36,272 nt of DNA from an uncultured Caldilineaceae bacterium. GTDB lineage: Bacteria > Chloroflexota > Anaerolineae > 4572-78 > J111. Positions 1 to 32,866 of this stretch are shown one piece after another. The translations under genes were made by a program, and so were the position numbers. The stretch is from positions 17,450-53,721 of the forward strand of contig CAZWZZ010000001.1 in the NCBI GenBank assembly GCA_964638395.1, written 5' to 3'. Every line of letters begins with the position of its first letter. Positions within the stretch are counted from its first letter, which is position 1. Under the pieces are notes generated by a model. That model saw only the letters and a program-made list of their open reading frames with translations. It ran no database searches and was not told where the DNA came from.

Positions 1-665
1 AATTCATCTTTTTCCACGTGGCTAAAGTGGCCGGTCTCAGCTTGCGACAGGCTCTCAAGCCGTACACGCAGGAACCGGCACAGTTCAAAATCAAGCGCCC
101 TCCCCGGCACAGAAACGGCCGGCTCAACCCGCTGTATGAAATGTGGGAGTCGGCGTTGACCCACGCTACCGCCGGGGACGCCCGAAAAGCGCTGAATGGG
201 ACGTTCGATCAGTTCTACAAATTTGCCTTTGTCCGTAATCCGTGGGAGTGGCAGGTGTCGATGTACCATTTTTTGCTGAGAGAGATTGGCAATCCCCGGT
301 ATGAACAGGTGAAAGCGATGTCCGGTTTTGAGGCGTATCTGGAGTGGGTCATCGCTGCCAAAAATCCTTACCCGAAAGGGGCCACCAAGCTCCAAAGCGA
401 GATGCTGACCGATGAGGCGGGCCGGATTCTGGTGGATTTCGTGGGCCGGTATGAAAATCTGACCGTTGATTTTGCGTATGTCTGCCGGGTCTTGAATATC
501 AAAGCGTCGTTGCCCCATCTCAACCAGACGAAGCATCGGGATTATCGCACTTATTACAATGCCCGCACCCGGCGCTTGGTAGCCGATTATTTCCGGGCCG
601 ACATCGAGTTGTTTGGATACAGATTTGAGGGCCTGGCCACCGGAGCAAACTATCATGTTAATTGA
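1..665 (+). CDS. Sulfotransferase (family-2-like), 5' end cut by the window edge
   Basis: Frame is open from nt 3: FIFFHVAKVAGLSL resembles the PAPS 5'-phosphosulfate-binding loop (FxHxPKxxGxS). RNPWEWQVSMYHF resembles the 3'-phosphate-binding RxPxxRxxS region. The GTG at 18 in the ORF track is probably internal. Confidence 0.6.
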   Translation, partial: FIFFHVAKVAGLSLRQALKPYTQEPAQFKIKRPPRHRNGRLNPLYEMWESALTHATAGDARKALNGTFDQFYKFAFVRNPWEWQVSMYHFLLREIGNPRYEQVKAMSGFEAYLEWVIAAKNPYPKGATKLQSEMLTDEAGRILVDFVGRYENLTVDFAYVCRVLNIKASLPHLNQTKHRDYRTYYNARTRRLVADYFRADIELFGYRFEGLATGANYHVN

Positions 666-2808
666 GTTGACTATCACCGGCGCCCTGGCTTATGCCGGTC
701 TAAAATCGTATCTCAATCATCAACGTAAACCAAAATTGGTACAGATCATCCAGCCACCCTCCAAACAAAAAGGGTGGATCGAGAAAACAGAACAGACATT
801 GGCCGGATTACTCCCGTTTCAAAATAAGCAGCGGCAACAGTTGCAGGTGATTTCTGAAGCCCCCCTCGAGGTCAGTGAGGCGGAACAGGTCATTAACCGG
901 GATCTGAAACTTTCGCTGGTCACGTTAGGTTTGACGACAGCCGGTTTCCTCTTCAACCCTTTGTTGACCTGGATCAGTGTCCCCGGCTTGATCTATCTCC
1001 AAATACCGTTCCTCAAAACCGGCTACCGCGAACTGATCCGGGAAAAACGGGTCGGGCAGGGCGTGCTTGATAGCACCATCACGGTTGTGTTGTTATGGTT
1101 ACGTTATTTTTGGCTAACAGCCTCATTTTTGACCTTGATGAACTTGAGCTTGAAGTTGATTTTGAAAACTCAAGACAAGTCACGCCAAAAATTGGTCAAC
1201 ATTTTGGGGGATATGCCTCAATTTGTATGGGTGCTGCGGGGTGAGGTCGAGGTTCAAATCCCGCTGGAAAAATTAACCGTTGGCGACGTGGTCGTGATTA
1301 ATCCGGGTGAAATGATCCCCATAGATGGGCGGGTGGCCGCGGGGGCCGGCAGCGTCAACCAACACCGCCTGACCGGGGAAGCCGGCCTGGTGGAAAAGGA
1401 GGTGGGCGACAGCGTCTTGGCCACAACGATTTTGTTGTCGGGCCGACTGTTCATCCGGGTCGAAAAGGCCGGTAGTGAAACCGTCGCGGCTCAAATCGGA
1501 CAGATTTTGAATCAAACCGCCGATTATAAAAGTACGCTGCAAACCCGGGGAGAAATGATTGCCGATAAGGGCGCGTTACCCACGCTGGCCCTGAGCGCCG
1601 TCACATTGCCCATACTGGGACCGGTGGGGGCGGCCACCATTTTACTGTCCTCATTTGGTTATAACATGCGTATCTTTGCGCCCATTAGCGTCCTCAACTT
1701 CCTACAGATAGCGGCTGACCATAGCATTTTGGTGAAGGATGGTCGGGCTTTGGAAACATTGCGGGCAGTCGATACCATCGTGTTCGACAAAACCGGAACC
1801 TTGACCGAAGAGCAGCCTTATGTGGCTGCTGTTCACGCCTGTAGCGCCTACAATGAAAAAATAATTTTACAATATGCCGCTTCCGCCGAATACCGGCAAA
1901 CCCACCCGATTGCTTTGGCTATTTTAGACAAAGCTGCCCGCGACCATCTTGATTTATTCCCCGTCACCGAGGCTAATTACGACGTGGGCTACGGCTTGAA
2001 AGTCAACGTTGCCGGTAAATTAGTCTGCCTCGGCAGCAAGCGCTTTCTGCAACGGGAAAATATGACGATTCCCGATAGCCTGCTCACTCGTCAAATGTAT
2101 TGTGATGAATGTGGGCATACCCTGGTCTATGTGGCGCTGGATCGTGTGGTCATTGGGGCGCTGGAACTGCATCCCACCATTCGCCCGGAGGTCAGGCAGG
2201 TGGTGCGTGAGTTGCAACGGCAGGGTCTAAACGTCTACATCATCTCCGGCGATCATGAAAAGCCCACCCAACATCTGGCCCACAAGTTGGGTATCTCCCA
2301 CTATTTTGCCGAGGTATTGCCGGACGATAAAGCCCGGCTGGTCAGAGAATTACAGGAGGTAGGCCGGACGGTTTGTTTTGTGGGCGATGGCATCAATGAC
2401 GCCATTGCCCTCAAACAGGCCAATGTTTCTGTCTCCTTGCGGGGTGCCGCCTCGGTGGCCATTGATACGGCTCAAGTGATTTTGATGAGCCAAAACTTGA
2501 GCCATTTGTTGACTCTCCTAAAGCTGGCCCAAAAACTGGATAAAAATATGACCACCAATTTATGGTTGACCCTTATCCCCGGCGTCGTATGTGTCGGCGG
2601 AGTCTACCTGGTGCATCTGGGCGTAGCCGCGGCGCAGATGTTATTTTATGGGGGGCTGGGAGCCGGCGTCGCCAATGGGATGATGCCCTTATTAGAACAT
2701 AAGTGGACAGGGGATCAGGATACGATCAATAATAAGCTGCTCTCAGGGATTTATGATGAAAAATATAGGGACAAGCGCATCTTGAACAACAACACTACAT
2801 CGGATTAG
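655..2808 (+). CDS. Divergent P1B-like P-type ATPase, paralogue 1 (intact, 717 aa from ATG 655)
   Basis: LTGEAGLVEK (TGE), DKTGTLT phosphorylation site, AEYRQTHPIA (P1B-type HP motif), ISGDHE, VLPDDK, GDGINDAIAL hinge. No CxxC/His-rich N-terminus. The segment aligned to the TM CPx motif reads SSFGYNMRIFAP. ATG 655 (MLIELTITGALAYAGLKSY) matches the paralogue N-termini and overlaps the upstream stop by 11 nt; the track start at 613 is less likely. Confidence 0.85.
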   Translation: MLIELTITGALAYAGLKSYLNHQRKPKLVQIIQPPSKQKGWIEKTEQTLAGLLPFQNKQRQQLQVISEAPLEVSEAEQVINRDLKLSLVTLGLTTAGFLFNPLLTWISVPGLIYLQIPFLKTGYRELIREKRVGQGVLDSTITVVLLWLRYFWLTASFLTLMNLSLKLILKTQDKSRQKLVNILGDMPQFVWVLRGEVEVQIPLEKLTVGDVVVINPGEMIPIDGRVAAGAGSVNQHRLTGEAGLVEKEVGDSVLATTILLSGRLFIRVEKAGSETVAAQIGQILNQTADYKSTLQTRGEMIADKGALPTLALSAVTLPILGPVGAATILLSSFGYNMRIFAPISVLNFLQIAADHSILVKDGRALETLRAVDTIVFDKTGTLTEEQPYVAAVHACSAYNEKIILQYAASAEYRQTHPIALAILDKAARDHLDLFPVTEANYDVGYGLKVNVAGKLVCLGSKRFLQRENMTIPDSLLTRQMYCDECGHTLVYVALDRVVIGALELHPTIRPEVRQVVRELQRQGLNVYIISGDHEKPTQHLAHKLGISHYFAEVLPDDKARLVRELQEVGRTVCFVGDGINDAIALKQANVSVSLRGAASVAIDTAQVILMSQNLSHLLTLLKLAQKLDKNMTTNLWLTLIPGVVCVGGVYLVHLGVAAAQMLFYGGLGAGVANGMMPLLEHKWTGDQDTINNKLLSGIYDEKYRDKRILNNNTTSD

Positions 2809-2884
2809 GAAAGGAGCGGATAGAAAAGAGAGAAAATCCGCTGTTTTCTAAATCCGTTGTAGTGCTTACGAAGGAGATGTTTTT

Positions 2885-4258
2885 ATGTGTTCAATTTCAG
2901 GTTTTATCATAACTAATCCCAGAGCAGACCGGCGGCAAATTGCTACGGTCTATCAAACGATTTTGGCCCGAGGCGCGGAACGGGGCAAAGATAGCGCCGG
3001 TATTTTGACCTTGAACGGGCAAGGTCGGGTCAAGCGGCACGTTGAAATCACGCCTCAGCGGTATGATTTTGTGCAATCGGTGGTCGCGGATGACTGTCAG
3101 GTCTTAATTGCCAACAATCGGGCCGAACCAACGACTGAGTTTGTCCGGCATAAAACAGACGCCGACGCTCAACCCTTTGGCAACGGGGTCGTCTTTATCA
3201 GCCACAATGGCACCATTGCCAACGACCACGATTTACGCCAACAATTCGACATTCAAGTTGAGACCTGCATCGACTCGGCCGTTTGCCCCGAAGTGATCTA
3301 TCAATTGGGCGTCCGGGATGGCCTGGATGCGCTCAAAGGTTCATTTGCCCTGGCCATTGTCGATAAACGCCACCCGCAAAAACTATGGTTGGCCCGCAAC
3401 TACAAACCTTTATTTCTACAAGCCCGGCCTGAACTGGGCGCGATCTTCTTTGCCTCCCAAGCCGACCATCTTAGCGCGTCGAACGGCCTCCTCAGCCAAC
3501 TCCGGCAGCCGGCGGTGGTCTCTATGCCGCCTTATACTCTGTTGGAGCTGGACGGTCAAACCGGCCACATCAAAGAAGAAGCCATTGTCCCCCGGATTCG
3601 CAACAAAAAAGCCCTGATTATTTGCAGCGGTGGGTTGGACAGCACCACCTCAGCCAAATGGGCCCAACTGGAAGGGTATGAGATCACCCTGTTGCATTTC
3701 CGGTATGGCTGTCGGGCCGAAACACGGGAAATGGACGCCATCCGTAACATTGCCGAGGCGCTGGGTTGCGAGTATCGCTTTGAAAGTTTGGATTGGCTCA
3801 AGCAGTTGGGCGGCTCATCATTAACCGACACTTCCAAGGAAATCACCCGTAATGAAGCCGGGGCCGAATTTGCCCATGAGTGGGTGCCGGCTCGTAATTT
3901 GATTATGACCTCCCTGGCGGCCGGCTTGTGTGACCGGTATGGGTATGACACCCTGATTTTAGGCTTAAACCTGGAAGAGGGGGGCGCTTTCCCTGATAAC
4001 ACGGTTGAGTTTTATCGCACGTTAGATCACGTGTTGGATATTGGCACAACGAGCCGCCCCCGCTTGCTCAGTCCCCTGGCCAATATGGTGAAACATGAGA
4101 TTGTTTCTCTGGCTGTAGAAATAGAAGCCCCTATTCACCTGTCGTGGTCCTGTTATCATGGCCGGCACTATCATTGTGGGCAATGTGGGCCGTGCTATAT
4201 GCGCCGGACCGCGTTTAAAATCATCAACCAGCCTGATCTTATTACGTATGAAAATTGA
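2885..4258 (+). CDS. gat-queC: Gat-QueC: class-II (Ntn) glutamine amidotransferase fused to a QueC-like PP-loop ATPase
   Basis: N-terminus MCSISG (catalytic Cys2) with AQPF...HNGTIANDHDL typical of class-II GATases. C-terminal half has the PP-loop ALIICSGGLDSTT and the QueC Zn cluster SCYHGRHYHCGQCGPCYMR. AAGGAG Shine-Dalgarno motif 7 nt upstream of the ATG. Confidence 0.85.
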   Translation: MCSISGFIITNPRADRRQIATVYQTILARGAERGKDSAGILTLNGQGRVKRHVEITPQRYDFVQSVVADDCQVLIANNRAEPTTEFVRHKTDADAQPFGNGVVFISHNGTIANDHDLRQQFDIQVETCIDSAVCPEVIYQLGVRDGLDALKGSFALAIVDKRHPQKLWLARNYKPLFLQARPELGAIFFASQADHLSASNGLLSQLRQPAVVSMPPYTLLELDGQTGHIKEEAIVPRIRNKKALIICSGGLDSTTSAKWAQLEGYEITLLHFRYGCRAETREMDAIRNIAEALGCEYRFESLDWLKQLGGSSLTDTSKEITRNEAGAEFAHEWVPARNLIMTSLAAGLCDRYGYDTLILGLNLEEGGAFPDNTVEFYRTLDHVLDIGTTSRPRLLSPLANMVKHEIVSLAVEIEAPIHLSWSCYHGRHYHCGQCGPCYMRRTAFKIINQPDLITYEN

Positions 4259-4269
4259 GGAGGCGTCGA

Positions 4270-4698
4270 ATGTATACGATTATCACCAAAATCAGTTATG
4301 AATATGCCCATCGTCTCATTCATCATCAAGGTAAATGTCGCCATGTGCATGGTCACAGCGGTGAGGCCACTATCGAACTGGCGGCCGAGTCGCTGAATGA
4401 CAACGGTTTTGTGATGGATTTCGGCGAGGTTAAAAGCCCCTTGAAAACGTGGCTCAATGAACATTGGGATCACGCCTACCTGGCCAATGAGCAGGACCCG
4501 TTGTTGCCGACTTTGCAGGCGCAGGGCATGAAAACCTTCATCTTTCCGGCTGAACCATCGGCGGAAGTGATGGCCAAATGTCTATTCGAGCAGGTCTCGA
4601 ATCTGGAGTTGCGGGCCGGAGTCAAGGTGGTGCGGGTGACGGTCCAAGAGACTTGTACCGGCTTGGCCGTGTACGAGCCAACAGGAGGTAGAAGTTAA
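4270..4698 (+). CDS. queD: 6-carboxy-5,6,7,8-tetrahydropterin synthase
   Basis: KCRHVHGHSGE matches the CxxxHGH motif of QueD/PTPS T-fold enzymes, and the ~140-aa size fits. GAGGAGG SD precedes ATG 4270; the track start at 4255 overlaps that SD and is unlikely. Confidence 0.85.
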   Translation: MYTIITKISYEYAHRLIHHQGKCRHVHGHSGEATIELAAESLNDNGFVMDFGEVKSPLKTWLNEHWDHAYLANEQDPLLPTLQAQGMKTFIFPAEPSAEVMAKCLFEQVSNLELRAGVKVVRVTVQETCTGLAVYEPTGGRS

Positions 4699-4701
4699 CC
4701 T

Positions 4702-5382
4702 ATGAAATATAGCGAAATCTTCTATACCCTACAAGGCGAAGGTAAATTGGTGGGCGTTCCGTCGGTCTTTTTTCGGACCAGCTATTGTAACCTGCGCTGC
4801 TGGTGGTGTGATACGCCTTATACCAGTTGGCAGCCCGAAAACAGGGACATCAGTGTGACCGACGCCTTTGCGGCGATTACCGAGTACCGGATCAAACATG
4901 TGGTCATTACCGGCGGGGAGCCGTTTATTCAGCCGGAGGCTTTAACCGAACTGTGTGACAAATTGGCCGACTATGGCTGCCACATAACCATCGAAACCAA
5001 TGCCACCATCTTTGCGCCGGTCAACGCGGATTTGATTTCGATGAGTCCCAAATTGGCCAACTCGACGCCTGAAAATGACCGGACTTGGACGGAACGGCAT
5101 GACCGGGAGCGCATTAAGGGAGATGTGATTTGTCAATTTTTGGATAGGTATGATTGTCAGGTCAAATTTGTGGTGGATAAGCCGGAGGATTTAGAAGAGA
5201 TCCAACAGTTGGTGAATGAGCTTAAGATCCCGCCTGAAACAGTGGTTTTGATGCCGCAAGGTCTTAAGCCGGAGGTTGTCAACCACAAAGAACAGTGGTT
5301 GGCTGAAATCTGTAAGGAGCAGGGATACCGCTACTCGCCGCGACTACATATCAATATTTGGGGGGATAAACGATGCACATGA
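4702..5382 (+). CDS. queE: 7-carboxy-7-deazaguanine synthase (radical SAM)
   Basis: EIFYTLQGEGKLVGVPSVFFRTSYCNLRCWWCDTPYT is the QueE N-terminal signature with its Cys cluster. Starts 4 nt after the queD stop. Confidence 0.85.
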   Translation: MKYSEIFYTLQGEGKLVGVPSVFFRTSYCNLRCWWCDTPYTSWQPENRDISVTDAFAAITEYRIKHVVITGGEPFIQPEALTELCDKLADYGCHITIETNATIFAPVNADLISMSPKLANSTPENDRTWTERHDRERIKGDVICQFLDRYDCQVKFVVDKPEDLEEIQQLVNELKIPPETVVLMPQGLKPEVVNHKEQWLAEICKEQGYRYSPRLHINIWGDKRCT

Positions 5383-5939
5383 AACCAAAACAATTTGATG
5401 GCGCCCTCATCGAGGAAGGCGTTAGCCTCATCTTAAAGGGCCTGGGCGAAGATTTGAACCGGGAAGGGTTACTCGACACCCCTAAACGGGTGGCCAAGAT
5501 GTATCGAGAAATATTTTGTGATAGTTCATTCAACGGTACGCAATTTTGCAATAGTGAGCAATACAACCAGATCGTTATGGTCCGCGATATTCCCTTTTAT
5601 TCGTTATGTGAACATCACATGTTGCCGTTTTTTGGCACAGCCACAGTTGGCTACATTCCCCAAAAAACGTACCTGGGGCTATCAAAATTAGCCCGGGTGG
5701 TTGATCTTTACAGCCGTCAACTGCAAGTACAGGAGCGCATGACGATGCAGATCGCCGATTGGTTGTGGGAACAGACGAACCCGGCCGGCGTTGGGGTTAT
5801 GGTCAAAGCCAGACATTTATGCATGGAGATGCGCGGCATTCAAAAGATTGGGAGTGAAACAGTCACTACCGCCACGTTGGGGGTATTTCGGACAGACAAG
5901 GAAATCGAAGATAGGTTTATGCGTTTCATAGGCGTATAG
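5373..5939 (+). CDS. folE: GTP cyclohydrolase I
   Basis: LLDTPKRVAKMY, SLCEHHMLPFFG, RQLQVQERMT and ARHLCMEMRG are classical FolE motifs. Overlaps the queE stop by 10 nt. Confidence 0.9.
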   Translation: MHMKPKQFDGALIEEGVSLILKGLGEDLNREGLLDTPKRVAKMYREIFCDSSFNGTQFCNSEQYNQIVMVRDIPFYSLCEHHMLPFFGTATVGYIPQKTYLGLSKLARVVDLYSRQLQVQERMTMQIADWLWEQTNPAGVGVMVKARHLCMEMRGIQKIGSETVTTATLGVFRTDKEIEDRFMRFIGV

Positions 5940-5953
5940 GTGAATGTTTCAAA

Positions 5954-7165
5954 ATGTTTCAACTCGAAATACAACCGCCCGCCGAAATGAATAGCTGGCT
6001 CGACTCTATCAGGGCCGACCTGGGCCACTGTGACCCCCTTGAGACCTTCCGTCGCCGCTGGCAGACGGCCCACGAGCGGTTTGGGCGAGACCCGGTCGGC
6101 GAGTTGGCCTACCGGGATGCCTGGCTCTATTTTCAGGAGAAGGTTCATCCTCTGGTGCGCCGCAAGCTGACGGCGGAGAGCGAAGGGCGTCAGGCCGCCC
6201 GGAAGATCGCGGCCATTTTTGAGCCGGATGCCCCGCCCCAACGGATCAACCGGCAGATGGTGGCTCACATGCGGCAACAGCGTTTAGAGCCAACAAGACC
6301 TGGCAGCTTTTTGAAACCGACCAGGTCGGACCGGCCTGATTTCGACCGGCCTATTTTTATCGTTTCCGCGCCGAGGGCGGGTAGCAGCCTGTTGTTTGAA
6401 ACGCTGGCCCGCTTTGCCGAGGTGTGGACGATTGGGCAGGAAAGCCACGACATCGAGGCCGACCTGCCGGCCCTCCATCCGGCCACCCACGCCTACGCCT
6501 CCAACCGCTTGACCGCCGCCGAGGCCACACCGGCGGTCAGGCAAGCGATGGGGGATTGGTTTGGCCGCCGCTTGCAGGATAGAGAGGGCCGGTTGTATCA
6601 GGCGCTCCCGGCGGAAAAACGGCCGGCGGCGGTTCGCTTTCTGGAAAAGACGCCCAAGAACGCCCTGCGGATCCCCTTCCTGAAAGCCATTTTCCCCGAT
6701 GCTCGCTTCATCTACTTATACCGGGAACCGCGCCAGAACATCAGCAGCATGTTGGAAGGCTGGCGATCCCGCCGCTTTGTGGCCTATCGAGGCCTCCCCG
6801 GCTGGCCCTACAAAGAGTGGAGTTTTCTATTGGTACCGGGCTGGGAGCAGTGGTTCGATAAACCGCTGGTGGAGATTGCGGCCTATCAATGGCAAATTAC
6901 CAACGAGACGATCCGGGCCGATTTGCAACCATTGCCGACGGATTGCTGGCATCGGGTCGATTATGAGGCGTTAATCAACCGCCCCGCCGAAACCATCAAA
7001 CGGATCAGTGATTTTGCAGCGTTTAGCTGGACGGCTGAGATCGCAGAGCGGCTGGCCCGGCCGTTGCCGGTGTCACACATGGCCGTCTCGCCTCCCGCGG
7101 CGGATAAGTGGCGGAAGTATGAGGCGGAGATCAAGTCCGTTCTGCCCGTGATAAACGTCCAATAG
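5954..7165 (+). CDS. Sulfotransferase (P-loop PAPS-binding type) with a ~130-aa N-terminal extension
   Basis: IFIVSAPRAGSSLLFETL (5'-PSB loop, PRxGS[ST]) and RFLEKTPKNALRIPFL are typical of bacterial Sulfotransfer_3-like enzymes. The first ~130 aa have no motif I recognise. Confidence 0.7.
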   Translation: MFQLEIQPPAEMNSWLDSIRADLGHCDPLETFRRRWQTAHERFGRDPVGELAYRDAWLYFQEKVHPLVRRKLTAESEGRQAARKIAAIFEPDAPPQRINRQMVAHMRQQRLEPTRPGSFLKPTRSDRPDFDRPIFIVSAPRAGSSLLFETLARFAEVWTIGQESHDIEADLPALHPATHAYASNRLTAAEATPAVRQAMGDWFGRRLQDREGRLYQALPAEKRPAAVRFLEKTPKNALRIPFLKAIFPDARFIYLYREPRQNISSMLEGWRSRRFVAYRGLPGWPYKEWSFLLVPGWEQWFDKPLVEIAAYQWQITNETIRADLQPLPTDCWHRVDYEALINRPAETIKRISDFAAFSWTAEIAERLARPLPVSHMAVSPPAADKWRKYEAEIKSVLPVINVQ

Positions 7166-7228
7166 GTAGCAAGGAGATCATAAAAATTATGGTAGCCATT
7201 GATAATTTTGCAACAACGGAGGTTTTAT

Positions 7229-10200
7229 ATGGACAAAGAATACGCCATAGCCCCAAAGCTTGATATTGACGGGGGCGCTTATGCTGAATTTTATGTGCTA
7301 CGAAAAAATGCCTCTACTATGACACAAGCCACCATTGAATGGTTTCATAATCATGTAGATGTTTGGTTGAGAGAGGTCACGCATGAAAATGAGAGCCACC
7401 TCCCGGCTATATTAAGCGTTGGCAGTGGGGAAGGCGACATAGATATCGAAATCATTAAGGCTATTCAGCCATACTTGGGTTCAAAAAAATTAAAATATGA
7501 TGCCCTTGAGCCTAATTTGCGCCATTATGAACGTTTCTTAGACAGGATAAATAGGATGCCGCTAGACGCATCCCTCAGTTTAGCCATCTATAATGTATAT
7601 TTTGATCAATTCAGCACCAATCAACAGTATGATGTCGTTTTGCTCATTCATGTCCTTTACTATTTTGATGATCCATATCAAGCCATCCGACAGGCTTTAA
7701 GATATACCAAACCAGGCGGACGAGTCGTTATTATTCACCAATCCTCTACGGGTATTCCTGAAATTCAACGTAAACATATGTATAAGCTAAAGAGCAACGT
7801 GGATGAGTTGTTTACCACCGATGATATCAAAAAATCACTTGATAATGGGGGTGAGCAATATCGTTTTTTTAACATTGATGCCCATTTAGAGGTCACGGAA
7901 TGTCTTAAACGGTCTGAAGTTGGGTTAAAAATAATGTCATTTTGTATGGAATGTGATTTGAGCCAAATTGATAAGTTAAGATTGAATCTTTTGGCTCAAT
8001 CTTTCTCTGACCTTGCGGTGAGTCGGGGCAATGGTAAGTCTTTTATTTATGAACCGCTCGGCGCGTTCATCGTTGATAATCCTAAAACAAAAAGATTGCC
8101 CCAGGATAGGGATTGTGTTGAAGATTATCGCCAACTAGCTCAAAAATTTGAATGGTCTAAAACATTTTTGGACAAAAAAAATTCAAATATCAGAGTCCTG
8201 GATGTGGGTTGTGGAACGGGGCGCTGGTTGCAGGCGTTCCTGATGTATGTGACCCCACAACTGCCCAATTTGGAGATACTGTACGATCTGGTAGACCCTT
8301 CCGAACAGGCTATGTCACAAGCTCTCGTTAAGATAGAGCATCCGCTAAAAATTGGTCACCAATATATAGATACTATTCAGCAAGCCAGGCTAGACCAAAG
8401 TCGTTATGATATTATTTGGTCGATGCATGCTTTCTATGCGATTCCCCGCCCTGACCTCCCTCACGTTTTAGGCAAAATATCTAACCACCTTAACGATCAG
8501 GGTCAGGCGTTTATCGCTCAAGCAACTAAAAAATCGTTTTATGTTCGATTTTACGATAAATTTCTTGAGACATTTCATTGCAACGAAGCTGGTTTTACGT
8601 CAGCAGAGGATATTGTGGCAGCCTTGAACATGCTTGGGCTGGAATATCAGGTGTACGCTATTTCTTATGATGAATGTATAGCTGAAGAGGACTTGATCGC
8701 CCTGGAACATTACATCATGAAAGAATCTGCCAGCAACTCTTTCAGATGGGAAGATGTCTCTGCCCAGGAAGCCAACAGAGAAGTCGGTCTACAAGATGTG
8801 CTGAATGATCCGAGTCTGGGGGCATACCTCCGTTCTTTTATAAAAGAGTCGATGTACTGTTTTACCCAAGAAATATGGCTCATATCGTTTGGGAAGAAAG
8901 AAAATGGGGCTAATCATTTTCATAACAATCATAAACAATCGTTTGATTACCTTGATAAAAATAAACAAAACAGTGTAGTTGACCCCTTGTTACCCGATGA
9001 GACGGAAATGCGTCAACTCGTTGACACAGCAATGAAATTTATCGTGCAGTGTCAGCTAGATACTGCTAAGTTTCCCCTCAATGGCTCTGGGTTTAAGTGG
9101 GTCCACACCGATGACTTCAATCGTGAGTATGAAGATATGCTTACGTTAGCCAAAACAGTTGAAGCGCCTCTACCTGAAGATGGCGAGCCTCATTTTGAAA
9201 AAATCTTGCACGATCTATTCTTTCGACTGACTCCCTACAGCACCAATGATAACAGCGGTGGATATCTGGCCTATGTGCCTGGTGGGGGGCTTTTTCATGC
9301 CGCTCTAGCCGACTTTATCTCCCTATCGCTCAACCGCTATGTGACAATGTTCATGGCCGCGCCGGGCTTGGCGGCCATTGAAGAGCAAGTTATCCGTTGG
9401 CTATGTGATATTGTGGGTTTTTCCAATGAGGCAGGGGGTGTCATTACCTCAGGCGGTTCTACAGCCACTTTTGTGGCTATCCATACCGCTCGGACTGACA
9501 AGCTATCCAACAAAGAATTGTTAAACGGGGTCGCCTATATGAGTGACCAGACTCACCTGTGCGTTGAGCAAGGACTGCATCTTTGTGGGTTTTCCAAACA
9601 GAATATACGTAAAATCCCCGTAGATAGTAACTTCCGTATCCGAACTGATCTCCTGGCACAAACCATTGAGCAAGATAGGGCGGCTGGCCTCCACCCCTTC
9701 TTGTTGGTTGCTAATGCGGGGACGGCCAATACCGGGGCCGTGGATAATTTACTACAAACTGCAAGAATTGCTAGAAACTATAACCTGTGGTTTCACGTTG
9801 ATGCTGCTTATGGTGGATTTTTTCTGTTGACCAAACAAGGGCAGACATTAATGAAGGGCATTGAGCAAGCTGACTCGCTTGTTCTTGATCCCCACAAATC
9901 TTTATTTTTGCCGTATGGCACAGGCGGGTTATTGGTCAACGACAAAACAAAACTGCTAAATGCCTTCACCTTTACCGGAAGTTATTTACCCCCTACTCAA
10001 AAACAGAAAGCAACTGATCCTCTGCTCGATGACATCATGAATCTTTCTCAAGAAGTAAGCAGAGATTTTAGAGGTTTTAGAATATGGTTGCCCTTAAAAA
10101 TGCTTGGCGTGAAGCCCTTCCGTGAGCAACTGGAAGAAAAGTTAAAACTGACTCGCTGGGTGACTGACCAGCTACAACAAATCCCCAATCTTCGGATTGT

Positions 10201-10480
10201 TGCGCCCCCACAACTTTCGGTGGTGACCTTTAAATTAGAGCCTACCGACTTTGATGTTTCTGACGAAGAACTGGATCAGCTTAATAAAAATTTCTTAGAT
10301 GCCATTAACCGGCGAGGGAATATTTTTCTTTCACCGTTTAAGTCCAAAGATAACGTCATCGGAGAATTTGCGCTACGCATGGCTATACTCTCCCATCGAA
10401 CAAAGCAGGAGCATCTCCGGCAAGGCGTCAGCGACATTCAATCAGCCGTAGAGGAAACATTATCGGGTTCGCAATGTTGA
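7229..10480 (+). CDS. Tri-domain protein: HNMT-like N-methyltransferase + class-I SAM methyltransferase + group-II PLP-dependent amino-acid decarboxylase
   Basis: Domain 1: ILSVGSGEGDIDIEII...LEPN...YDVVLLIHVLYYFDD (histamine-N-methyltransferase-like pattern). Domain 2: IRVLDVGCGTGRWL (motif I, nt ~8190-8230). Domain 3: HVDAAYGGF and LDPHKSLFLPYGTGG (PLP-Lys, nt ~9888) of DOPA/Tyr/His/DABA decarboxylases. ATG 7229 has an ACGGAGG SD; the track start at 7199 is TTG. Confidence 0.75.
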   Translation: MDKEYAIAPKLDIDGGAYAEFYVLRKNASTMTQATIEWFHNHVDVWLREVTHENESHLPAILSVGSGEGDIDIEIIKAIQPYLGSKKLKYDALEPNLRHYERFLDRINRMPLDASLSLAIYNVYFDQFSTNQQYDVVLLIHVLYYFDDPYQAIRQALRYTKPGGRVVIIHQSSTGIPEIQRKHMYKLKSNVDELFTTDDIKKSLDNGGEQYRFFNIDAHLEVTECLKRSEVGLKIMSFCMECDLSQIDKLRLNLLAQSFSDLAVSRGNGKSFIYEPLGAFIVDNPKTKRLPQDRDCVEDYRQLAQKFEWSKTFLDKKNSNIRVLDVGCGTGRWLQAFLMYVTPQLPNLEILYDLVDPSEQAMSQALVKIEHPLKIGHQYIDTIQQARLDQSRYDIIWSMHAFYAIPRPDLPHVLGKISNHLNDQGQAFIAQATKKSFYVRFYDKFLETFHCNEAGFTSAEDIVAALNMLGLEYQVYAISYDECIAEEDLIALEHYIMKESASNSFRWEDVSAQEANREVGLQDVLNDPSLGAYLRSFIKESMYCFTQEIWLISFGKKENGANHFHNNHKQSFDYLDKNKQNSVVDPLLPDETEMRQLVDTAMKFIVQCQLDTAKFPLNGSGFKWVHTDDFNREYEDMLTLAKTVEAPLPEDGEPHFEKILHDLFFRLTPYSTNDNSGGYLAYVPGGGLFHAALADFISLSLNRYVTMFMAAPGLAAIEEQVIRWLCDIVGFSNEAGGVITSGGSTATFVAIHTARTDKLSNKELLNGVAYMSDQTHLCVEQGLHLCGFSKQNIRKIPVDSNFRIRTDLLAQTIEQDRAAGLHPFLLVANAGTANTGAVDNLLQTARIARNYNLWFHVDAAYGGFFLLTKQGQTLMKGIEQADSLVLDPHKSLFLPYGTGGLLVNDKTKLLNAFTFTGSYLPPTQKQKATDPLLDDIMNLSQEVSRDFRGFRIWLPLKMLGVKPFREQLEEKLKLTRWVTDQLQQIPNLRIVAPPQLSVVTFKLEPTDFDVSDEELDQLNKNFLDAINRRGNIFLSPFKSKDNVIGEFALRMAILSHRTKQEHLRQGVSDIQSAVEETLSGSQC

Positions 10481-10504
10481 CTTTAATCGTTCGGGAATAA
10501 ATTT

Positions 10505-11871: not shown

Positions 11872-12042
11872 CCTCAACTCACACCAAAGAAATCGCCGTG
11901 ATTGGATTAGGCTGTCGATTTCCGGGTGGTGTGAAAGGGAGTTGCTAACTGTCGGAAAATTTCCGCTGTTGTGTACTACTGCTTATATATCAGGAAGAAA
12001 ACAAAATGAATGATGCAGTCCGCTTAGAAGATAATAAAATAA
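11794..12042 (+). repeat. 249-bp direct repeat, copy A (identical to 20201..20449)
   Basis: Base-by-base comparison of the two stretches shows no mismatch. The ~35 bp upstream are similar but not identical. Identity ends abruptly at 12042/20449. Confidence 0.95.
11868..11948 (+). pseudogene. Remnant of a type-I polyketide ketosynthase 5' end (copy A)
   Basis: TTG-initiated 26 codons (M)TSTHTKEIAVIGLGCRFPGGVKGSC*. EIAVIGLGCRFPGG matches the conserved N-terminal KS motif IAI[IV]G[ML][GS]CR[FL]PG[GA]. The TTG overlaps the ATPase stop (TTGA). Confidence 0.55.
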
Positions 12043-12830: not shown

Positions 12831-12867
12831 GTAGCTGAAACTACCGTTTTTGTTTAAGGAGATCAAT

Positions 12868-20278: not shown

Positions 20279-20449
20279 CCTCAACTCACACCAAAGAAAT
20301 CGCCGTGATTGGATTAGGCTGTCGATTTCCGGGTGGTGTGAAAGGGAGTTGCTAACTGTCGGAAAATTTCCGCTGTTGTGTACTACTGCTTATATATCAG
20401 GAAGAAAACAAAATGAATGATGCAGTCCGCTTAGAAGATAATAAAATAA
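20201..20449 (+). repeat. 249-bp direct repeat, copy B (identical to 11794..12042)
   Basis: Covers the last 26 codons of ATPase paralogue 4, the KS remnant, an intergenic stretch and 12 codons of MNDAVRLEDNKI. Confidence 0.95.
20275..20355 (+). pseudogene. Remnant of a type-I polyketide ketosynthase 5' end (copy B)
   Basis: Same 81 nt as 11868..11948. TTG overlaps the ATPase TGA stop. (M)TSTHTKEIAVIGLGCRFPGGVKGSC*. Confidence 0.55.
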
Positions 20450-20742: not shown

Positions 20743-22914
20743 ATGGCCTTTTTGTCTCTAAGCGTCATTGGCGGAGCCGCTTTGGCGGGTGCCGTCTTAA
20801 AATTTCAAAACAGAAAAAAATCATTACTGATCGAATGTTTGTCCGAAGAACGGTATAGCAAATCAGAAACCGGCTTACTCGGCGGACGACTGCCTAGCTC
20901 GATAGAGATAGATGATAAACTCCAACGATTTTTTCAGAAACGGATTGATCCGTTGTTTGGAGATAATCGTAAGGAGCAGCTTAAAACTCTAAGTGACAGC
21001 CAGCTATTAGAGATCAGTCAAACCGAAAAAGAGGTTAATCGCTTTTTCCCGTTATCTGTGGCGGCGTTGGGGCTAAGTGTGATGGGGGCGTTTCTCTTCA
21101 ATCCTTTGCTCATCGGAGCTTCAGCTATTGGTATCTTTTGTACCGTACAAATTTGTCAACAAGGCTACGAAGAATGGCGAACCGAAAAACGGCTTAAAAT
21201 CATCCACCTGACCGGTTTGTATTGTACCGGCGTGTGGTTAGGCGGTTTTTATGTGGCCGGTTCGTTAGCTATGGTCCTGCACACGATCAGCGAAAAACTG
21301 GTAATCATCACCCAAAATCGCTCTCGAAAAAGTTTCATTAATGTTTTTGGGCAACACCCTAAGTCGGTATGGGTCCTCTGTGATGGGGTTGAAGTTCAAA
21401 TACCGTTTGAGCGCTTAAAAAAAGGAGACATTTTAGTCCTGCATGCCGGTGAAACGATTCCCTCTGATGGAACAATCATTCAGGGGCAAGCCCTGGTTGA
21501 CCAACATAAGTTAACCGGCGAAGCCCAACCTGCCGAGAAAACAGTGGCCGACCCTGTCTTGGCCTCGACCGTCCTCCTGGCCGGAACGATTCAAGTTCGG
21601 GTCGAAAAAGCCGGGTCTGAAACAATCGCGGCTCAAATCGGCCAAATTCTCAACAATACCGCCGATTATCAAGCTGTGTTAGAAGCCGAAGCTTTGGAAA
21701 TCTGCAATAAGACTGTCTTACCTTCCCTGGCTTTAAGCATGTTAGTTTTCCCTGTGTTTGGCTTACAACGGGCCGTTGCCATTCTGGGCGCTAACTATGG
21801 GAGCAATTTATCTATTTTAGGCCCAATGAGTATGTTGAACTTCTTGAACATTGCTTCGGAAAAAGGGATTTTGATAAAAGACGGGCGCGTTTTAGAACGG
21901 TTAAAAACGATAGACACCGTTGTCTTTGACAAAACCGGAACCTTAACTGAAGAAAAATCGACCATTACCCAAATTTACAGTTACAGCGATATGAGTCCGC
22001 AGGAGATACTAACGTTGGCCGCCGCAGCCGAGTATAAGCAAACCCATCCGATTGCCAAAGCTATTCTTGAGGCGGCTGAGACAAATAACCTGGAGATTCC
22101 TCCGATTGATCAGGCCCATTACGAAATCGGCTATGGCATCAAAGTCCAATGTTTGGAACAACGGATTTGGGTGGGGAGCTATCGGTTTATGACCCTGGAA
22201 GGCTTAACCATACCGCCAGAGTTAGAAGCCCAACAAACGTTTTGTAAAACGCAAGGCCATCCACTGGTTCTGGTAGGAGTTGATGGCCAGGTGGTCGGTG
22301 CGATTGAATTGGAGCCGGCTATTCGGCCAGAAACTAAAGAGCTGGTGGCCAATCTTCGGGCACGTAATCTGTCGCTCTATATTATCTCGGGCGACCACGA
22401 AGAACCAACCCGTAATCTGGCTCAAACGCTTGGCCTGGATGGTTATTTTGCCAACACCTTGCCCCAACAAAAAGAGGAGTTAATCCAACAGTTGCAACAA
22501 ACGGGCCATAAAGTCTGTTTTGTCGGAGATGGGATCAATGACGCCTTAGCCTTAAAGCGGGCTGAGGTCTCTATCTCATTACGGGGCGCGACCAGCGCGG
22601 CCACCGATACGGCCCAAATTGTATTTATGGATGGCAGCCTGAAGCAATTGCCTGAATTATTTCACCTTGCTGAGTCCTTAAACCAAAATAATCGAACAAA
22701 TATTGCCACAATTGCGGCGGCCAGTGCCCTGTGTGGGGTCGGGATTCTATATTTTGGCTTCGGGATTACCTTTGCCGAGGTATTATTTTGCTCCAGTGTC
22801 GTGGTCGGCTTAGGGGTGACCACCAAGCCGCTACTTGACCATAGAAAGAGATTAGAAGCGGGTGACCAGACGCTTTATCTGGCTGAGAAGACATACCGGG
22901 AGTTAAAAATTTGA
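20743..22914 (+). CDS. Divergent P1B-like P-type ATPase, paralogue 5 (intact, 723 aa)
   Basis: LTGEAQPAEK, DKTGTLT, AEYKQTHPIA, ISGDHEE, TLPQQK, GDGINDALAL. The CPx position reads ILGANYGSNLSILGP. The N-terminal helix LSVIGGAALAGAVLKFQNRKK matches the family pattern. Confidence 0.85.
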   Translation: MAFLSLSVIGGAALAGAVLKFQNRKKSLLIECLSEERYSKSETGLLGGRLPSSIEIDDKLQRFFQKRIDPLFGDNRKEQLKTLSDSQLLEISQTEKEVNRFFPLSVAALGLSVMGAFLFNPLLIGASAIGIFCTVQICQQGYEEWRTEKRLKIIHLTGLYCTGVWLGGFYVAGSLAMVLHTISEKLVIITQNRSRKSFINVFGQHPKSVWVLCDGVEVQIPFERLKKGDILVLHAGETIPSDGTIIQGQALVDQHKLTGEAQPAEKTVADPVLASTVLLAGTIQVRVEKAGSETIAAQIGQILNNTADYQAVLEAEALEICNKTVLPSLALSMLVFPVFGLQRAVAILGANYGSNLSILGPMSMLNFLNIASEKGILIKDGRVLERLKTIDTVVFDKTGTLTEEKSTITQIYSYSDMSPQEILTLAAAAEYKQTHPIAKAILEAAETNNLEIPPIDQAHYEIGYGIKVQCLEQRIWVGSYRFMTLEGLTIPPELEAQQTFCKTQGHPLVLVGVDGQVVGAIELEPAIRPETKELVANLRARNLSLYIISGDHEEPTRNLAQTLGLDGYFANTLPQQKEELIQQLQQTGHKVCFVGDGINDALALKRAEVSISLRGATSAATDTAQIVFMDGSLKQLPELFHLAESLNQNNRTNIATIAAASALCGVGILYFGFGITFAEVLFCSSVVVGLGVTTKPLLDHRKRLEAGDQTLYLAEKTYRELKI

Positions 22915-24038
22915 CAGTACTCACGTCCAATCCCATCCGGGTTGACCAACAAAAAATCTATCGCGTCGCCCAGGCTCTGTTACAAGTTCCCACCCCGGAG
23001 AATAGCCAACCGTGGAAAATCATCATCGATGATAACCGGCTTAAGATTTTTCACTCCTCTGAACGGGCTAAACTGGCCACATTTCCTGATGATTTATCGG
23101 TCATGGGGCTGGGGATGTTGCTGGAAACGTTAGAGTTAGCTTGTAGTCAGGAGGCGTTGGCCGTCCATACAACCCTGTTCCTGGAAGATCGGTCTGATGC
23201 TTCTCCCTGGCTAAAGGCGGAACTCAACCCTGCCCAGACAACGCCCGACCCTTTGAGCCTGGCTATCTATCTACGCCACACCGACCGCCGTAAATATGTC
23301 GGGGGAACGCTCAACGATCCAGTCTTTCAAGAAGTTCATCGTCAGGCCGGGACCAATCAGGGGGCGAATATCTATTTTATCGACCGGTACCCTGACGAAT
23401 ATTTACAGCTCTTGAAAAACGCCGACCAGAAAGTAATGGAATGGGACGAGTTACGCCAGGATTTAATGCGTTGGACCCGCTTCACCGATAAACAGATCGC
23501 CGCCTCCAGAGACGGTATGTCCTGGCGAAGTTTTTTACGCGGGCCGGAAAACTGGGTCTATTATCTTCGTTCCCGAGTCTGGTGGGCTGCGACTCATTTC
23601 GATTGGTATCCAGATTGGTTATATCGTTTCGAGACAACCTTTTTCGATGACTCCTCAGAGTTATCCCCCATAAGTTATGACGATGGGGCCGGCATCGGTT
23701 GTATTACCACGGCCTCAGATGATAGTAAAGATTTAATAGCCGCGGGGCGGCTTTCTTTGAGGGTCTGGCTCTTATTTAATCTAACCGGTTATGGGTTTCA
23801 ACCCCTGACCAACCTGACCAGCACCATCTATCCCTTTCACCAGGGTCGATTGAAGATACCGTCCCACCTTATTCCTTTGGTGGCTAGCGGGTACGAAACA
23901 TTACAACAAGTCTTTGGCTTCTCTAACCAGGAACTCCCCATTTTTTGCTTCCGGGTTGGGGTCGCTATGGGGAAATATCCAAACAACGCCAGAGCTTTAC
24001 GACGTGATGATAGACACATCATCTACAAAAAATCGTGA
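22911..24038 (+). CDS. Nitroreductase-superfamily protein, Acg-like
   Basis: VPTPENSQPWKIIIDDNRLKIF resembles the APSxHNxQPW motif of nitroreductase/Acg-type FMN proteins. The ~375-aa size fits a double-domain Acg-like protein. The TTG start overlaps the ATPase stop (TTGA). Confidence 0.5.
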   Translation: MTVLTSNPIRVDQQKIYRVAQALLQVPTPENSQPWKIIIDDNRLKIFHSSERAKLATFPDDLSVMGLGMLLETLELACSQEALAVHTTLFLEDRSDASPWLKAELNPAQTTPDPLSLAIYLRHTDRRKYVGGTLNDPVFQEVHRQAGTNQGANIYFIDRYPDEYLQLLKNADQKVMEWDELRQDLMRWTRFTDKQIAASRDGMSWRSFLRGPENWVYYLRSRVWWAATHFDWYPDWLYRFETTFFDDSSELSPISYDDGAGIGCITTASDDSKDLIAAGRLSLRVWLLFNLTGYGFQPLTNLTSTIYPFHQGRLKIPSHLIPLVASGYETLQQVFGFSNQELPIFCFRVGVAMGKYPNNARALRRDDRHIIYKKS

Positions 24039-28683: not shown

Positions 28684-28702
28684 CCTCAGTATTGAAGACG
28701 TT

Positions 28703-28759: not shown

Positions 28760-28830
28760 GCCTTTCACCGTGTGGGAGTTATTGATTTTCCATGCCTAAG
28801 CTCTAGTCTATCTTATATGAAAGAACTGCC

Positions 28831-30156: not shown

Positions 30157-30189
30157 ACAAAATAGGATGTCGCTGAAAAGAGGAGGAGT

Positions 30190-31831: not shown

Positions 31832-31902
31832 CGATGTGCAACTCCTGGACGGTTCAGAATAAGTTGACACTTTTTTACCCGTCGGGTTGAGCAACGTCAC
31901 TC

Positions 31903-31975
31903 CGTAAAACGCAAAACGTGAAACTTAGGACGTTATTTTGTCAAAATCATTACGTTTTGCGCCTTACGTTTTACG
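31903..31975. repeat. Imperfect palindromic element
   Basis: CGTAAAACG-CAAAACGT (31903-31919) pairs with ACGTTTTGC (31952-31960) and CGTTTTACG (31967-31975). Confidence 0.35.
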
Positions 31976-32101
31976 CAGGCTGTGGCTCCAATGTCAAGCG
32001 AACATCTCAGGTTTCTGAATCACGCCGGTGAGAATGGACGTTTTTTGGACGTTTATAAGATACGTTGTGAGTATCATCAGATAGTTGATTCGAGGTTTAC
32101 C

Positions 32102-32866
32102 ATGCTCTTGATATTTGAAATCTTTCTGGTGGGCGGGGTTGTTTACACCGGGATCAAAACATTTAGAAAACAGACACAAGGCCGGGAGGCGTCTTGGCTG
32201 ACGGCCCGGGACGAGGCTGCCCCCACCCCGGAGTCGGTCGCTGTCCCGGATCAAATCAGTCTGGCCCAACTCGAACCGCAGATCAATCGAGATTTTACCA
32301 TCTCCTCGGTTTCTCTGGGTTTATCCATTACCGGCGGTCTGGTCTACCCGCCGTTGGGGGTGGCCAGCATCCCCCTGACGATTTATGGCGCTCTGCCCAC
32401 CTTCGAGAATGCTTACCAAGCCTTTTTTAGCCGCAGTCGCACCAAAATGGCTATGGTCAGTTCCATTGTCATCATTGGCACGTTGGCTGCCAACTACTAC
32501 TTTTTGGCCTCGCTGGTGCAGTGGAGCTACCATCTGAATCAAAAATTGCTGGTCGAGATGAATTACAACTACCGGCAACTCTTGCTCTATCTCTTTGGCC
32601 CGACCTCCCGCTCGATCTGGATTCTGGTCAACGAGGTCGAGGTCAAAATTCCCCGGAATGAGTTGGCCGTGGGCGATATCGTCGTGGTCAATGAGGGCGA
32701 GTTGATCCCGGTCGATGGGATTATTGTTGACGGCGTGGGCCTGATCGATATGTATATTTTGACGGGGCAATCTCGGCCCGTGGAAAAAAGTGGCGGCGAC
32801 AAGGTTTTCGCAGCCACCGACTTGTTATCGGGGCGAATTTGTGTCCGGGCCGAGAAGGTCAAGTAA
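32102..32866 (+). pseudogene. P1B-like ATPase paralogue 6: 5' third only (N-terminal TMs + actuator domain)
   Basis: MLLIFEIFLVGGVVYTGIKTFRKQ and PQINRDFTISSVS match the family N-terminus. GDIVVVNEGELIPVDG...LTGQSRPVEK matches the actuator domain. Ends at RAEKVK*, where the paralogues continue EKAGSET. No DKTGT region. A palindromic element starts ~30 nt downstream. Confidence 0.8.

Follow-up and report, generated by a model that had tools for sequence, protein, structure and literature searches.

Cysteine-less P1B-fold ATPases embedded in biosynthetic gene clusters: six copies on one Caldilineaceae contig and a clade that may export organic metabolites

P-type ATPases are among the best-understood transporters. 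Their bacterial members are assumed to move inorganic cations, and those of the P1B type are automatically annotated as heavy-metal exporters. To our knowledge, the P1B-6 ATPases are uncharacterized except for the P1B-6-like CtpC of Mycobacterium tuberculosis. We use the published motif definitions of P1B-5, P1B-6, and P1B-7, in which P1B-6 has the signature N-X18-H-N-x-(S/T) spanning transmembrane helices 5 and 6 (TM5 and TM6) (PMC13460109). Here, we analyze six loci of one P-type ATPase in a 36,272-nucleotide (nt) stretch of DNA from an uncultured Caldilineaceae bacterium (NCBI GenBank assembly GCA_964638395.1, contig CAZWZZ010000001.1, positions 17,450 to 53,721 of the forward strand), which as a whole is called the window. 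The ATPases belong to a clade with the P1B fold in which, judged from sequence alignments, all thiophilic metal ligands of the pocket are replaced. The pump genes lie among genes for specialized-metabolite enzymes, with frequent translational coupling and, in some relatives, fusion to them. The protein family and its fold are already known; the pocket, the clade, and its context are undescribed in the searchable literature.

A tblastn search of the window with the three long ATPase copies as queries recovers six loci at E-values from 0 to 3e-10, which excludes chance matches. Three copies are intact and three are decayed (one by internal deletion, two as 5' fragments), and this confirms the number, state, and positions given in an initial annotation made from the sequence alone. 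The copies are:

655..2808, + strand: ATPase copy 1, intact, 717 amino acids (aa); TM4 pocket SSFGYNMR
10505..11871, + strand: ATPase copy 2, pseudogene; TM4 SANYSEILR
14639..15023, + strand: ATPase copy 3, frameshifted 5' fragment with the N-terminal helix, linker, and first TM pair
18170..20278, + strand: ATPase copy 4, intact, 702 aa; the copy used for the structure model
20743..22914, + strand: ATPase copy 5, intact, 723 aa; TM4 pocket GANYGSNLS
32102..32866, + strand: ATPase copy 6, 5' fragment of ~255 aa that ends inside the A domain

The Pfam domain E1-E2_ATPase is found in all six copies, and the HAD Hydrolase domain also in the long ones. Copy 2 matches at 10505-11755 and then, in a different frame, at 11755-11868. 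It is intact as far as the HP motif, after which ~240 residues (about 425-665) are deleted and the frame changes; its final 38 aa match the copy 4 type, at 92% identity to that copy. The match to copy 3 covers 14661-15020, with a frameshift near 14767-14793, and that to copy 6 covers 32105-32857. Pairwise identity among the copies is 32-56%; copies 2 and 3 share 70% over 76 aa. The copy 1 protein has an identical counterpart in a sister assembly (locus L006).

By sequence motifs and predicted structure, the copies are P1B-fold ATPases with a complete E1/E2 phosphorylation engine. An AlphaFold model of copy 4, made with an input alignment of 116 homologues (pLDDT 86.3, pTM 0.82), has eight TM helices (MA/MB and M1-M6). 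M4 (TM4) is unwound at residues 327-329, and the first 55 residues, like the N-terminal GGxxYxGxK helix, are of low confidence. The top Foldseek matches of this model are all P1B pumps (CopA, ZntA, sCoaT, ATP7B, and HMA4; TM-scores 0.57-0.71). By sequence, the closest solved relatives are AfCopA, LpCopA, ZntA, HMA4, and sCoaT, with AfCopA matched at E 8e-96 by the family profile. Together with the Pfam results and the N-terminal sequences, these matches bear out the initial description of a P1B fold without a metal-binding domain: by Pfam scan and inspection of the N-termini, no HMA domain, CxxC motif, or His-rich N-terminus is present in the window copies. The motif strings reported earlier (TGE, DKTGTLT, HP, ISGDHE, and GDGIND) are likewise confirmed. 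In copy 4 they lie at 235-237 (TGE), D373 (DKTGT), H412-P413, S526-G527-D528, and G572 to D577 (GDGIND). TGE, DKTGT, HP, SGD, and GDGIND are invariant or nearly so in the 116-sequence alignment, which indicates that the ATP-driven engine is intact.

Family models place the copies at the same level. Membership of the P-type superfamily follows from 206-221 bits on TIGR01494 (cutoff 62) and the DKTGT, TGE, and GDGIND motifs, and P1B membership from the eight-helix membrane domain and the invariant H412-P413. The generic heavy-metal ATPase model TIGR01525 is matched at 385-416 bits (cutoff 346; copy 1 scores 390). Narrower and more distant assignments were rejected. A P1B-1 (Cu+/Ag+) pump is excluded by 269-293 bits on TIGR01511 (cutoff 397) and by P637-G638 in place of LpCopA Y688-N689, and a P1B-2 (Zn2+/Cd2+/Pb2+) pump by 286-303 bits on TIGR01512 (cutoff 313.5), with G638 for K693 and N660 for D714. 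The P1A model kdpB yields 119-131 bits against a cutoff of 528. Scores for P2, P3, P4, and P5 are all far under the model cutoffs (98-114 bits against 618 for P-ATPase-V, TIGR01657).

The metal ligands of CopA and ZntA are replaced on every helix that supplies them in the alignments. On TM4, the CPC of CopA aligns with F329-S330-D331 of copy 4 and the Gly of CPCALG with R334. For copies 1, 2, 4, and 5, the TM4 motif reads SFGYN, ANYSE, ANFSD, and ANYGS, with F-G-Y, Y-S-E, F-S-D, and Y-G-S, respectively, at the CPC positions. Neither Cys nor Pro occurs at the CPC-equivalent positions of these four copies, and the window copies carry none of the TM4 Cys tripeptides CPC, CPH, SPC, PCP, SCA, or CSC; TM4 is indeed CPx-less, as first described. 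Conventional ligands contributed from other helices, which the initial annotation named as an observation that would refute it, are not seen in the sequence alignments to CopA and ZntA either. On TM5, CopA Y688-N689 and ZntA K693 align with P637-G638; on TM6, ZntA D714 aligns with N660 in Y659-N660-V-S662, and the Met of the CopA M-x-x-S-S ligand motif is also replaced. The pocket of copy 4 comprises F329-S330-D331, R334, P637-G638, Y659-N660, and S662.

The same pocket varies widely among relatives, on a scaffold that does not. The 116 closest homologues fall into two pocket types, N-F-[SA]-E (~70%) and [SG]-F-G-Y (~25%), and 104 of them have Arg at position 334, one turn past the CPC-equivalent site. 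Cys is not among the frequent residues at 329-331 in this alignment; it occurs at 327 in 10 of the 116 sequences and at 328 in 8. Across 150 representatives of clusters at 50% identity, the TM4 motifs include NFSE, SFGY, CIGDN, PFDDA, HFKYR, HPKNK, DFGTGIR, and YPGEG, and some members of this wider clade have a TM4 Pro. Entropy at four positions of the CPC region is 2.3-3.7 bits in the clade versus 0.45-0.85 bits in 61 canonical P1B pumps. Little or no variation is seen at the scaffold residues P304, P338, N343, P637, G644, N669, and P673. Pocket motifs of the NFSE, SFGY, and DFGTGIR types each reappear in different phyla, NFSE in Chloroflexota, Beggiatoaceae, and relatives of Entotheonella. 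This recurrence of one pocket motif in distant phyla suggests that the variation reflects specialization rather than decay.

The clade is large and well separated. On a family hidden Markov model, members at genome loci score 698-1071 bits, an intermediate cyanobacterial sequence (L024) scores 479, and canonical P1B pumps score at most 392. At 50% identity there are at least 150 clusters, and the matches listed all score at least 736 bits on this model. Members are found in Beggiatoaceae, Thiotrichaceae, Sedimenticolaceae, Methylococcales, Entotheonella, Caldilineaceae and other Chloroflexota, Acidobacteriota, Planctomycetota, Acidimicrobiia, and Acetobacteraceae. Homologues named in their source are all annotated as metal- or cation-transporting, mostly as "heavy metal translocating P-type ATPase" or "Cu2+-exporting ATPase." The N-terminus singled out in the initial annotation is a feature of the close family, which keeps a GGxxYxGxK helix followed by a basic cluster; fewer than half of the wider clade do so.

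In an unrooted neighbor-joining tree (simple distance, 232 sequences, 556 columns), the clade is recovered in 100 of 100 bootstraps, and the clade with L024 in 59 of 100. It does not fall inside a characterized P1B subgroup, the placement that would have told against the initial annotation, and it joins SCA-type pumps only as a sister. On TM4 the clade matches the defining motif of no named P1B subgroup. Compared with P1B-6, the Ser of SCA is kept as S330 in copies 2 and 4, and the Cys position holds D/E, Y, or S. Of the N-X18-H-N-x-(S/T) signature, Y659-N660-V-S662 on TM6 keeps N-x-S with Tyr for His, and the position of the TM5 Asn is P-G. On these alignments and this tree, the clade is most readily viewed as sister to P1B-6, or as derived from it, with loss of the Cys.

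We surveyed the genomic context of the clade in a neighborhood sample of ~30 loci. Because the genome scan used the shared motifs GDGIND and KDGR as patterns, it was dominated by canonical P1B matches; ~18 of 80 loci held family members, and the remainder served as controls. A polyketide synthase (PKS), a nonribosomal peptide synthetase (NRPS), or an acyl-ligase with a carrier protein lies within 10 kb of the pump at L001, L002, L003, L006 (the counterpart of the window), L013, L088, L089, L091, and L092, with a PKS at L002, L003, L088, L091, and L092. At L013, an A-MT-PCP-TE gene is followed by a pump, a methyltransferase, a 2-oxoglutarate oxygenase, and a second pump. Upstream of the pump at L089 are a CAR-like A-PCP-R gene, two amine oxidases, and a methyltransferase, and downstream at L090 and L092 are two halogenases. 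L009 and L016 have an arginine decarboxylase, L016 additionally a carbamoyltransferase. A decarboxylase adjoins the pump at three places in the window and at L009, L016, and L091. Some relatives are themselves fusions, with a methyltransferase (P0220) or an LPG_synthase_C aminoacyl-transferase (P0205) at the C-terminus; a third (P0141) has a weak C-terminal radical SAM match.

A Pfam census separates these loci from the controls. It covered 137 neighboring open reading frames (ORFs) at 20 family loci, leaving out 6 annotated housekeeping ORFs and 5 ORFs of more than 1300 aa (3 of them PKS/NRPS). Methyltransferases (6), AMP-binding enzymes (5), FAD/amine oxidases (DAO; 4), Trp_halogenase (3), further E1-E2 ATPases (3), and arginine decarboxylase (2) are found, and no metal-related family (MerR, HMA, or Cu-oxidase) is among the 25 commonest around the 20 loci. 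In contrast, 137 ORFs near canonical P1B pumps include MerR (4), HMA (3), multicopper oxidase (2), redoxin (4), and cbb3 cytochrome (2). Biosynthetic genes in the same orientation thus lie beside the pump across unrelated genomes, in contrast to the control set, and the link to tailoring genes first noted in the window holds for relatives in other phyla. A conserved partner subunit was also considered and rejected: in an all-versus-all clustering of neighboring ORFs from 23 loci, no family occurs in more than 5 loci.

Some neighborhoods share further features. One cassette is common to L001 (1249-5076), L003 (12093-16847), and L088 (12324-17888), which belong to Beggiatoa leptomitoformis and two metagenome contigs. 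It contains an AMP-ligase, a carrier protein, a HemN-like radical SAM enzyme, an unknown ORF of ~280 aa, and a Sulfotransfer_2 gene, with a chorismate pyruvate-lyase-like or aromatic ammonia-lyase gene close by, and may make a sulfated phenolic acyl product. Paired divergent pump paralogues a few kilobases apart lie beside NRPS/PKS genes at L013 (10001-16087, a Caldilineaceae metagenome-assembled genome, MAG) and L091 (6707-12049, in the 4.6-Mb assembly GCA_964656735.1). In the vicinity of L091 are also LPG_synthase_TM, a CDP-alcohol phosphatidyltransferase, three ornithine/diaminopimelate (Orn/DAP) decarboxylase genes or fragments, and GTP cyclohydrolase II.

The association with tailoring enzymes in relatives from other phyla makes an exporter of organic substrates the best reading. 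We tentatively propose that the clade comprises ATP-driven exporters of organic, probably amine-bearing, metabolites made by the clusters. A bolder form of the proposal, which we hold more loosely, is that a whole P1B branch has turned to the export of organic specialized metabolites (amines, guanidines, and sulfated or lipid-like compounds), its pocket re-tuned in each cluster and its gene travelling, recombining, and fusing with tailoring genes. In the E1 state, such a pump would bind the organic product of the adjacent tailoring enzymes on its cytoplasmic side. The N-[FY]-[SA]-[DE] type (copies 2 and 4) would most likely carry an amine- or guanidine-bearing cation, because each of these copies directly follows a pyridoxal phosphate (PLP) decarboxylase gene, and the acidic TM4 residue together with aromatic residues would hold it. 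Phosphorylation of the DKTGT Asp would then occlude the substrate, and release would occur outside in E2P. After release, the TM4 Arg (R334) may pair with the acidic residue as a built-in counter-ion, by analogy with K693-D714 of ZntA. Several divergent copies in one island would represent several cassettes, each arriving with its own exporter.

A number of points weigh against this proposal. The pocket was mapped by HMMER sequence alignment to CopA and ZntA and not from the model coordinates, and neighboring ORFs in the fetched loci were called by a simple longest-ORF rule. About a third of the surveyed loci have no clear biosynthetic neighbor (e.g., L010, L011, and L093). Some clusters with a pump (L009, L090, and L092) also contain ABC or MATE-like exporters and would not strictly need the pump for export. 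The pocket residues of copy 4 (N, S, D, Y, N, and S) could coordinate a hard divalent cation. In the tree, the clade, L024, and two SCA-type sequences (L026 and L034) group together in 78 of 100 bootstraps. SCA-type proteins read D-Y-S-C-A-L-K on TM4 and L-H-N-G-T-T on TM6, a frame that matches N-F-S-E-x-x-R and L-Y-N-x-S in the clade. An N-terminal HMA_2 domain is found in three distant representative clusters (P0221, P0232, and P0247), and P0221 and P0232 have the DFGTGIR pocket and TM4 and TM6 motifs closest to those of L024 and the SCA-type pumps.

The SCA-type kinship and the shared TM4 and TM6 frames make a hard-cation pump a real and indeed the main rival, albeit one that we judge rather unlikely. 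The proteins would still be inorganic-cation pumps, derived from P1B-6 with sulfur ligands swapped for oxygen or nitrogen, and would export Mn2+, Fe2+, Mg2+, Ca2+, or H+, perhaps in the supply or protection of cluster metalloenzymes. The sister position (78% bootstrap), the shared D/N-Y/F-S-x-x-x-K/R on TM4 and H/Y-N-x-S/T on TM6, the three HMA_2 forms, the TIGR01525 scores above cutoff, and the polar D/E, N, S, and Y at the CopA/ZntA metal-binding positions all fit, and every characterized P1 ATPase known to us moves an inorganic cation. However, the pocket is not conserved across the clade (H-F-K, P-G-Y, F-G-Y, and T-T-T all occur) and its entropy is several bits where canonical subgroups stay below one, variation that is not expected of a single-ion family; moreover, a conserved Arg lies one turn from the site. 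Metal sensors and chaperones are not among the frequent neighbor families, unlike in the controls, and three to six divergent copies in one biosynthetic island are hard to fit with metal homeostasis. The initial suggestion of a metabolite or organic-cation exporter therefore stands as far as the biosynthetic context across phyla is concerned, with the SCA-type kinship leaving the hard-cation rival in play. Similarly, the view that the substrate lies beyond known P1B logic holds for the lost TM4 Cys/Pro motif and metal ligands but not for the frame shared with SCA-type pumps.

The AMP-ligase, carrier protein, HemN-like, and Sulfotransfer_2 cassette beside the pump in L001, L003, and L088 could instead mean that the pumps flip or extrude amphipathic, lipid-like compounds made by the clusters, among them sulfated phenolic or acyl lipids and aminoacylated lipids, much as P4 ATPases or the MprF flippase domain do, but on a P1B scaffold. 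This would agree with the LPG_synthase_C fusion in one relative, with LPG_synthase_TM and the CDP-alcohol phosphatidyltransferase that adjoin the pump in L091, and with the helix core, whose small residues (G, S, A, and P-G) suggest a wide groove. Nevertheless, lipid-like contexts are a minority, and LPG_synthase_C homologues also act on soluble natural-product intermediates; we regard a flippase role as improbable. Less probable still is that the proteins do not transport at all and that the pocket drifts unconstrained in a regulatory or scaffolding membrane protein or in a gene being lost. High pocket variability and the decay of half of the window copies would be expected in that case, but pocket motifs are conserved in subclades across phyla (NFSE being the example given above), and catalytic and TM scaffold residues are kept. 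Furthermore, copy 1 differs from its counterpart in the sister assembly by one synonymous change in 2154 nt, a purifying pattern.

The window itself is a run of + strand genes of uneven G+C (0.41-0.58 in 2-kb windows). The genes that neighbor the ATPase copies are:

18..665, + strand: Sulfotransfer_2-family sulfotransferase (Pfam PF03567, E 4.5e-10); its end overlaps the start of copy 1
2885..5939, + strand: 7-deazaguanine cassette of a Gat-QueC fusion, a QueD-like PTPS, a QueE-like radical SAM enzyme, and GTP cyclohydrolase I (FolE), by Pfam
5954..7165, + strand: Sulfotransfer_3-family sulfotransferase (Pfam PF13469, E 1.3e-24)
7199..10480, + strand: tri-domain gene (methyltransferase, methyltransferase, group II PLP decarboxylase), 24 nt 5' of copy 2
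12850..14592, + strand: fusion of a SET domain and an Orn/DAP/Arg-type PLP decarboxylase (PF02784, PF00278, and PF00856), 46 nt 5' of copy 3
15258..16526, + strand: DUF3326 protein (Pfam PF11805, E 1.4e-79)
16666..18156, + strand: Orn/Lys/Arg decarboxylase, fold-type I (Pfam PF01276, E 1.5e-61), 13 nt 5' of copy 4
22911..24038, + strand: flavin mononucleotide (FMN) oxidoreductase-like ORF of the Acg family, nitroreductase superfamily (NCBIfam NF047509, E 6e-31, under the curated cutoff)

Copies 2, 3, and 4 are each directly preceded by a different PLP decarboxylase; in the tri-domain gene, PF00282 is matched at E 4e-62 beside the two methyltransferase regions. Copy 5 and the ORF at 22911-24038 overlap by 4 nt. 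The coordinates agree with the junctions reported initially, namely sulfotransferase to copy 1, tri-domain gene to copy 2, decarboxylase to copy 4 to a ketosynthase (KS) remnant, and copy 5 to nitroreductase. No MerR, ArsR, CsoR, or chaperone gene is present among the window genes, as had been observed for the surroundings of the copies. The sister assembly (L006) is 99.6% identical to the window, and near-identical sequence also occurs in GCA_054920155.1 and in runs SRR33304590 and SRR33304591. Directly 5' of the window, L006 (1-10011) carries an NRPS C-PCP module, an O-methyltransferase, a KS-AT-ACP-TE PKS, and an ABC importer.

Recent tandem duplication of the ATPase genes is ruled out by their identity of 32-56% to each other and by the 67% identity of copy 4 to homologues outside the window, which are nearer to it than any other window copy. 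These values indicate that old paralogues have come together in one island and that no recent amplification took place. The two copies of a direct repeat link the ends of copies 2 and 4:

11754..12042, + strand: direct repeat copy a, 289 nt, with an ATPase 3' end, the KS remnant, and the start of ORF 12006
20161..20449, + strand: direct repeat copy b, 289 nt, with an ATPase 3' end, the KS remnant, and the first codons of ORF 12006

The repeats are 98% identical and spaced 8407 nt apart (repeat search, blastn in agreement), and each includes the last ~118 nt of a pump gene. After copy 4, the KS N-terminal remnant comprises 16 residues (EIAVIGLGCRFPGGV, ~20290-20337). The shared 289-nt repeat indicates that pump genes recombined with each other and that the internal deletion of copy 2 is the resulting scar. 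Relative to L006, the copy 2 remnant (10505-11788) shows 18 differences over 1284 nt, including 14 that are synonymous in frame, a pattern that fits gene conversion from another pump paralogue and not random decay. Because G+C steps and pump fragments lie at cassette borders, the sequence suggests that pump genes may act as recombination joints for the exchange of cassettes of different G+C. The ORF at 12006-12830, in which repeat a ends, is chimeric: residues 17-74 match the N-terminal segment of the neighboring Orn/DAP-type decarboxylase (33% identity, E 5e-12), a weak DokD match is found, and for the remainder no family is matched. The ORF probably arose by rearrangement.

Several other genes in the window have unusual features. 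The Gat-QueC, QueD, QueE, and GTP cyclohydrolase I cassette has two flanking sulfotransferases and lies inside an NRPS-PKS cluster (2885-7165 and the region upstream in L006); QueC within the glutamine-amidotransferase fusion scores 168 bits on NCBIfam TIGR00364 (cutoff 150). Judged by its gene content, the cassette with the upstream NRPS-PKS genes seems to encode the synthesis of a 7-deazaguanine natural product that is modified and perhaps sulfated. We know of no characterized cluster that combines a 7-deazaguanine cassette, two sulfotransferases, and an NRPS-PKS. At 12850-14592, the SET domain at the N-terminus of a PLP decarboxylase is an unusual architecture. The ORF at 25042-28683 encodes a lipoprotein-like protein of 1213 aa in which three extracellular solute-binding domains lie in tandem (with three stretches each of SBP_bac_8 and SBP_bac_1), and that at 33931-36201 a 756-aa protein that begins with TM helices, continues as a long stretch of pentapeptide repeats, and ends in a phosphate-binding-protein-like PBP_like_2 domain. 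Copy 6 lies outside the biosynthetic block between two ORFs without a Pfam match (30980-31831 and 33053-33820) that form a paralogous pair (29% identity over 131 aa, E 8e-19). A ParA gene (30190-30987) precedes the first of these; its named relatives, at 56-62% identity, all come from Anaerolineae, Anaerolineales, Promineifilaceae, and Chloroflexi MAGs. By these ParA homologues the host probably belongs to the Chloroflexota (Anaerolineae), and a cyanobacterial origin, which the pentapeptide-repeat and DUF3326 genes might suggest, is not supported.

The searchable full-text literature holds no description of a Cys-less, cluster-embedded P1B clade; the uncharacterized families of TCDB and the 2014 P1B network lie outside this comparison. 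The clade may overlap with one of the functionally uncharacterized P-type ATPase (FUPA) families of TCDB that are bacterial, of heavy-metal-type (type I) topology, and of unknown substrate. FUPA30 to FUPA32 are not named in the searchable literature. If our proposal is correct, a class of prokaryotic P-type ATPases with substrates other than metals and ions would be described here for the first time. Organic substrates would widen the range of the P1 branch, and thousands of annotations would need correction. They would also provide natural-product genome mining with a new marker for export or self-resistance, whose pocket sequence might predict the product class, and would offer a compact bacterial model of a P-type ion site evolving into a small-molecule site.

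Among known systems, the P1B-6 type is the nearest branch of the tree (78%) and shares the eight-helix P1B fold and the TM4 and TM6 frames. The clade differs in lacking the defining SCA Cys and in having P-G for the TM5 Asn of N-X18-HN-x-S/T. SCA-type proteins score 371-392 bits on the family model versus at least 698 for members, and the clade has a hypervariable pocket and a biosynthetic rather than metal-related context. CopA and ZntA are the best sequence and structure matches, with the same A, P, and N domains, HP motif, and MA/MB plus M1-M6 topology. In the clade, however, CPC becomes F-S-D/E, CopA Y688/N689 and ZntA K693 become P637/G638, and ZntA D714 becomes N660; in addition, the window copies lack an HMA domain, carry one more hydrophobic helix at the N-terminus with a basic cluster after it, and score below the TIGR01511 and TIGR01512 cutoffs. 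The P5B polyamine pumps (ATP13A2 family) and P4 flippases offer a functional analogy, being P-type ATPases that transport organic cations or lipids after loss of the inorganic-ion site. These pumps keep the TM4 Pro. They are eukaryotic, have 10 or more TM helices, and are homologous to the clade only in the superfamily core, in line with the low TIGR01657 scores (98-114 bits versus 618). By analogy, the proposed export of amines through an acidic and aromatic pocket would run parallel to P5B.

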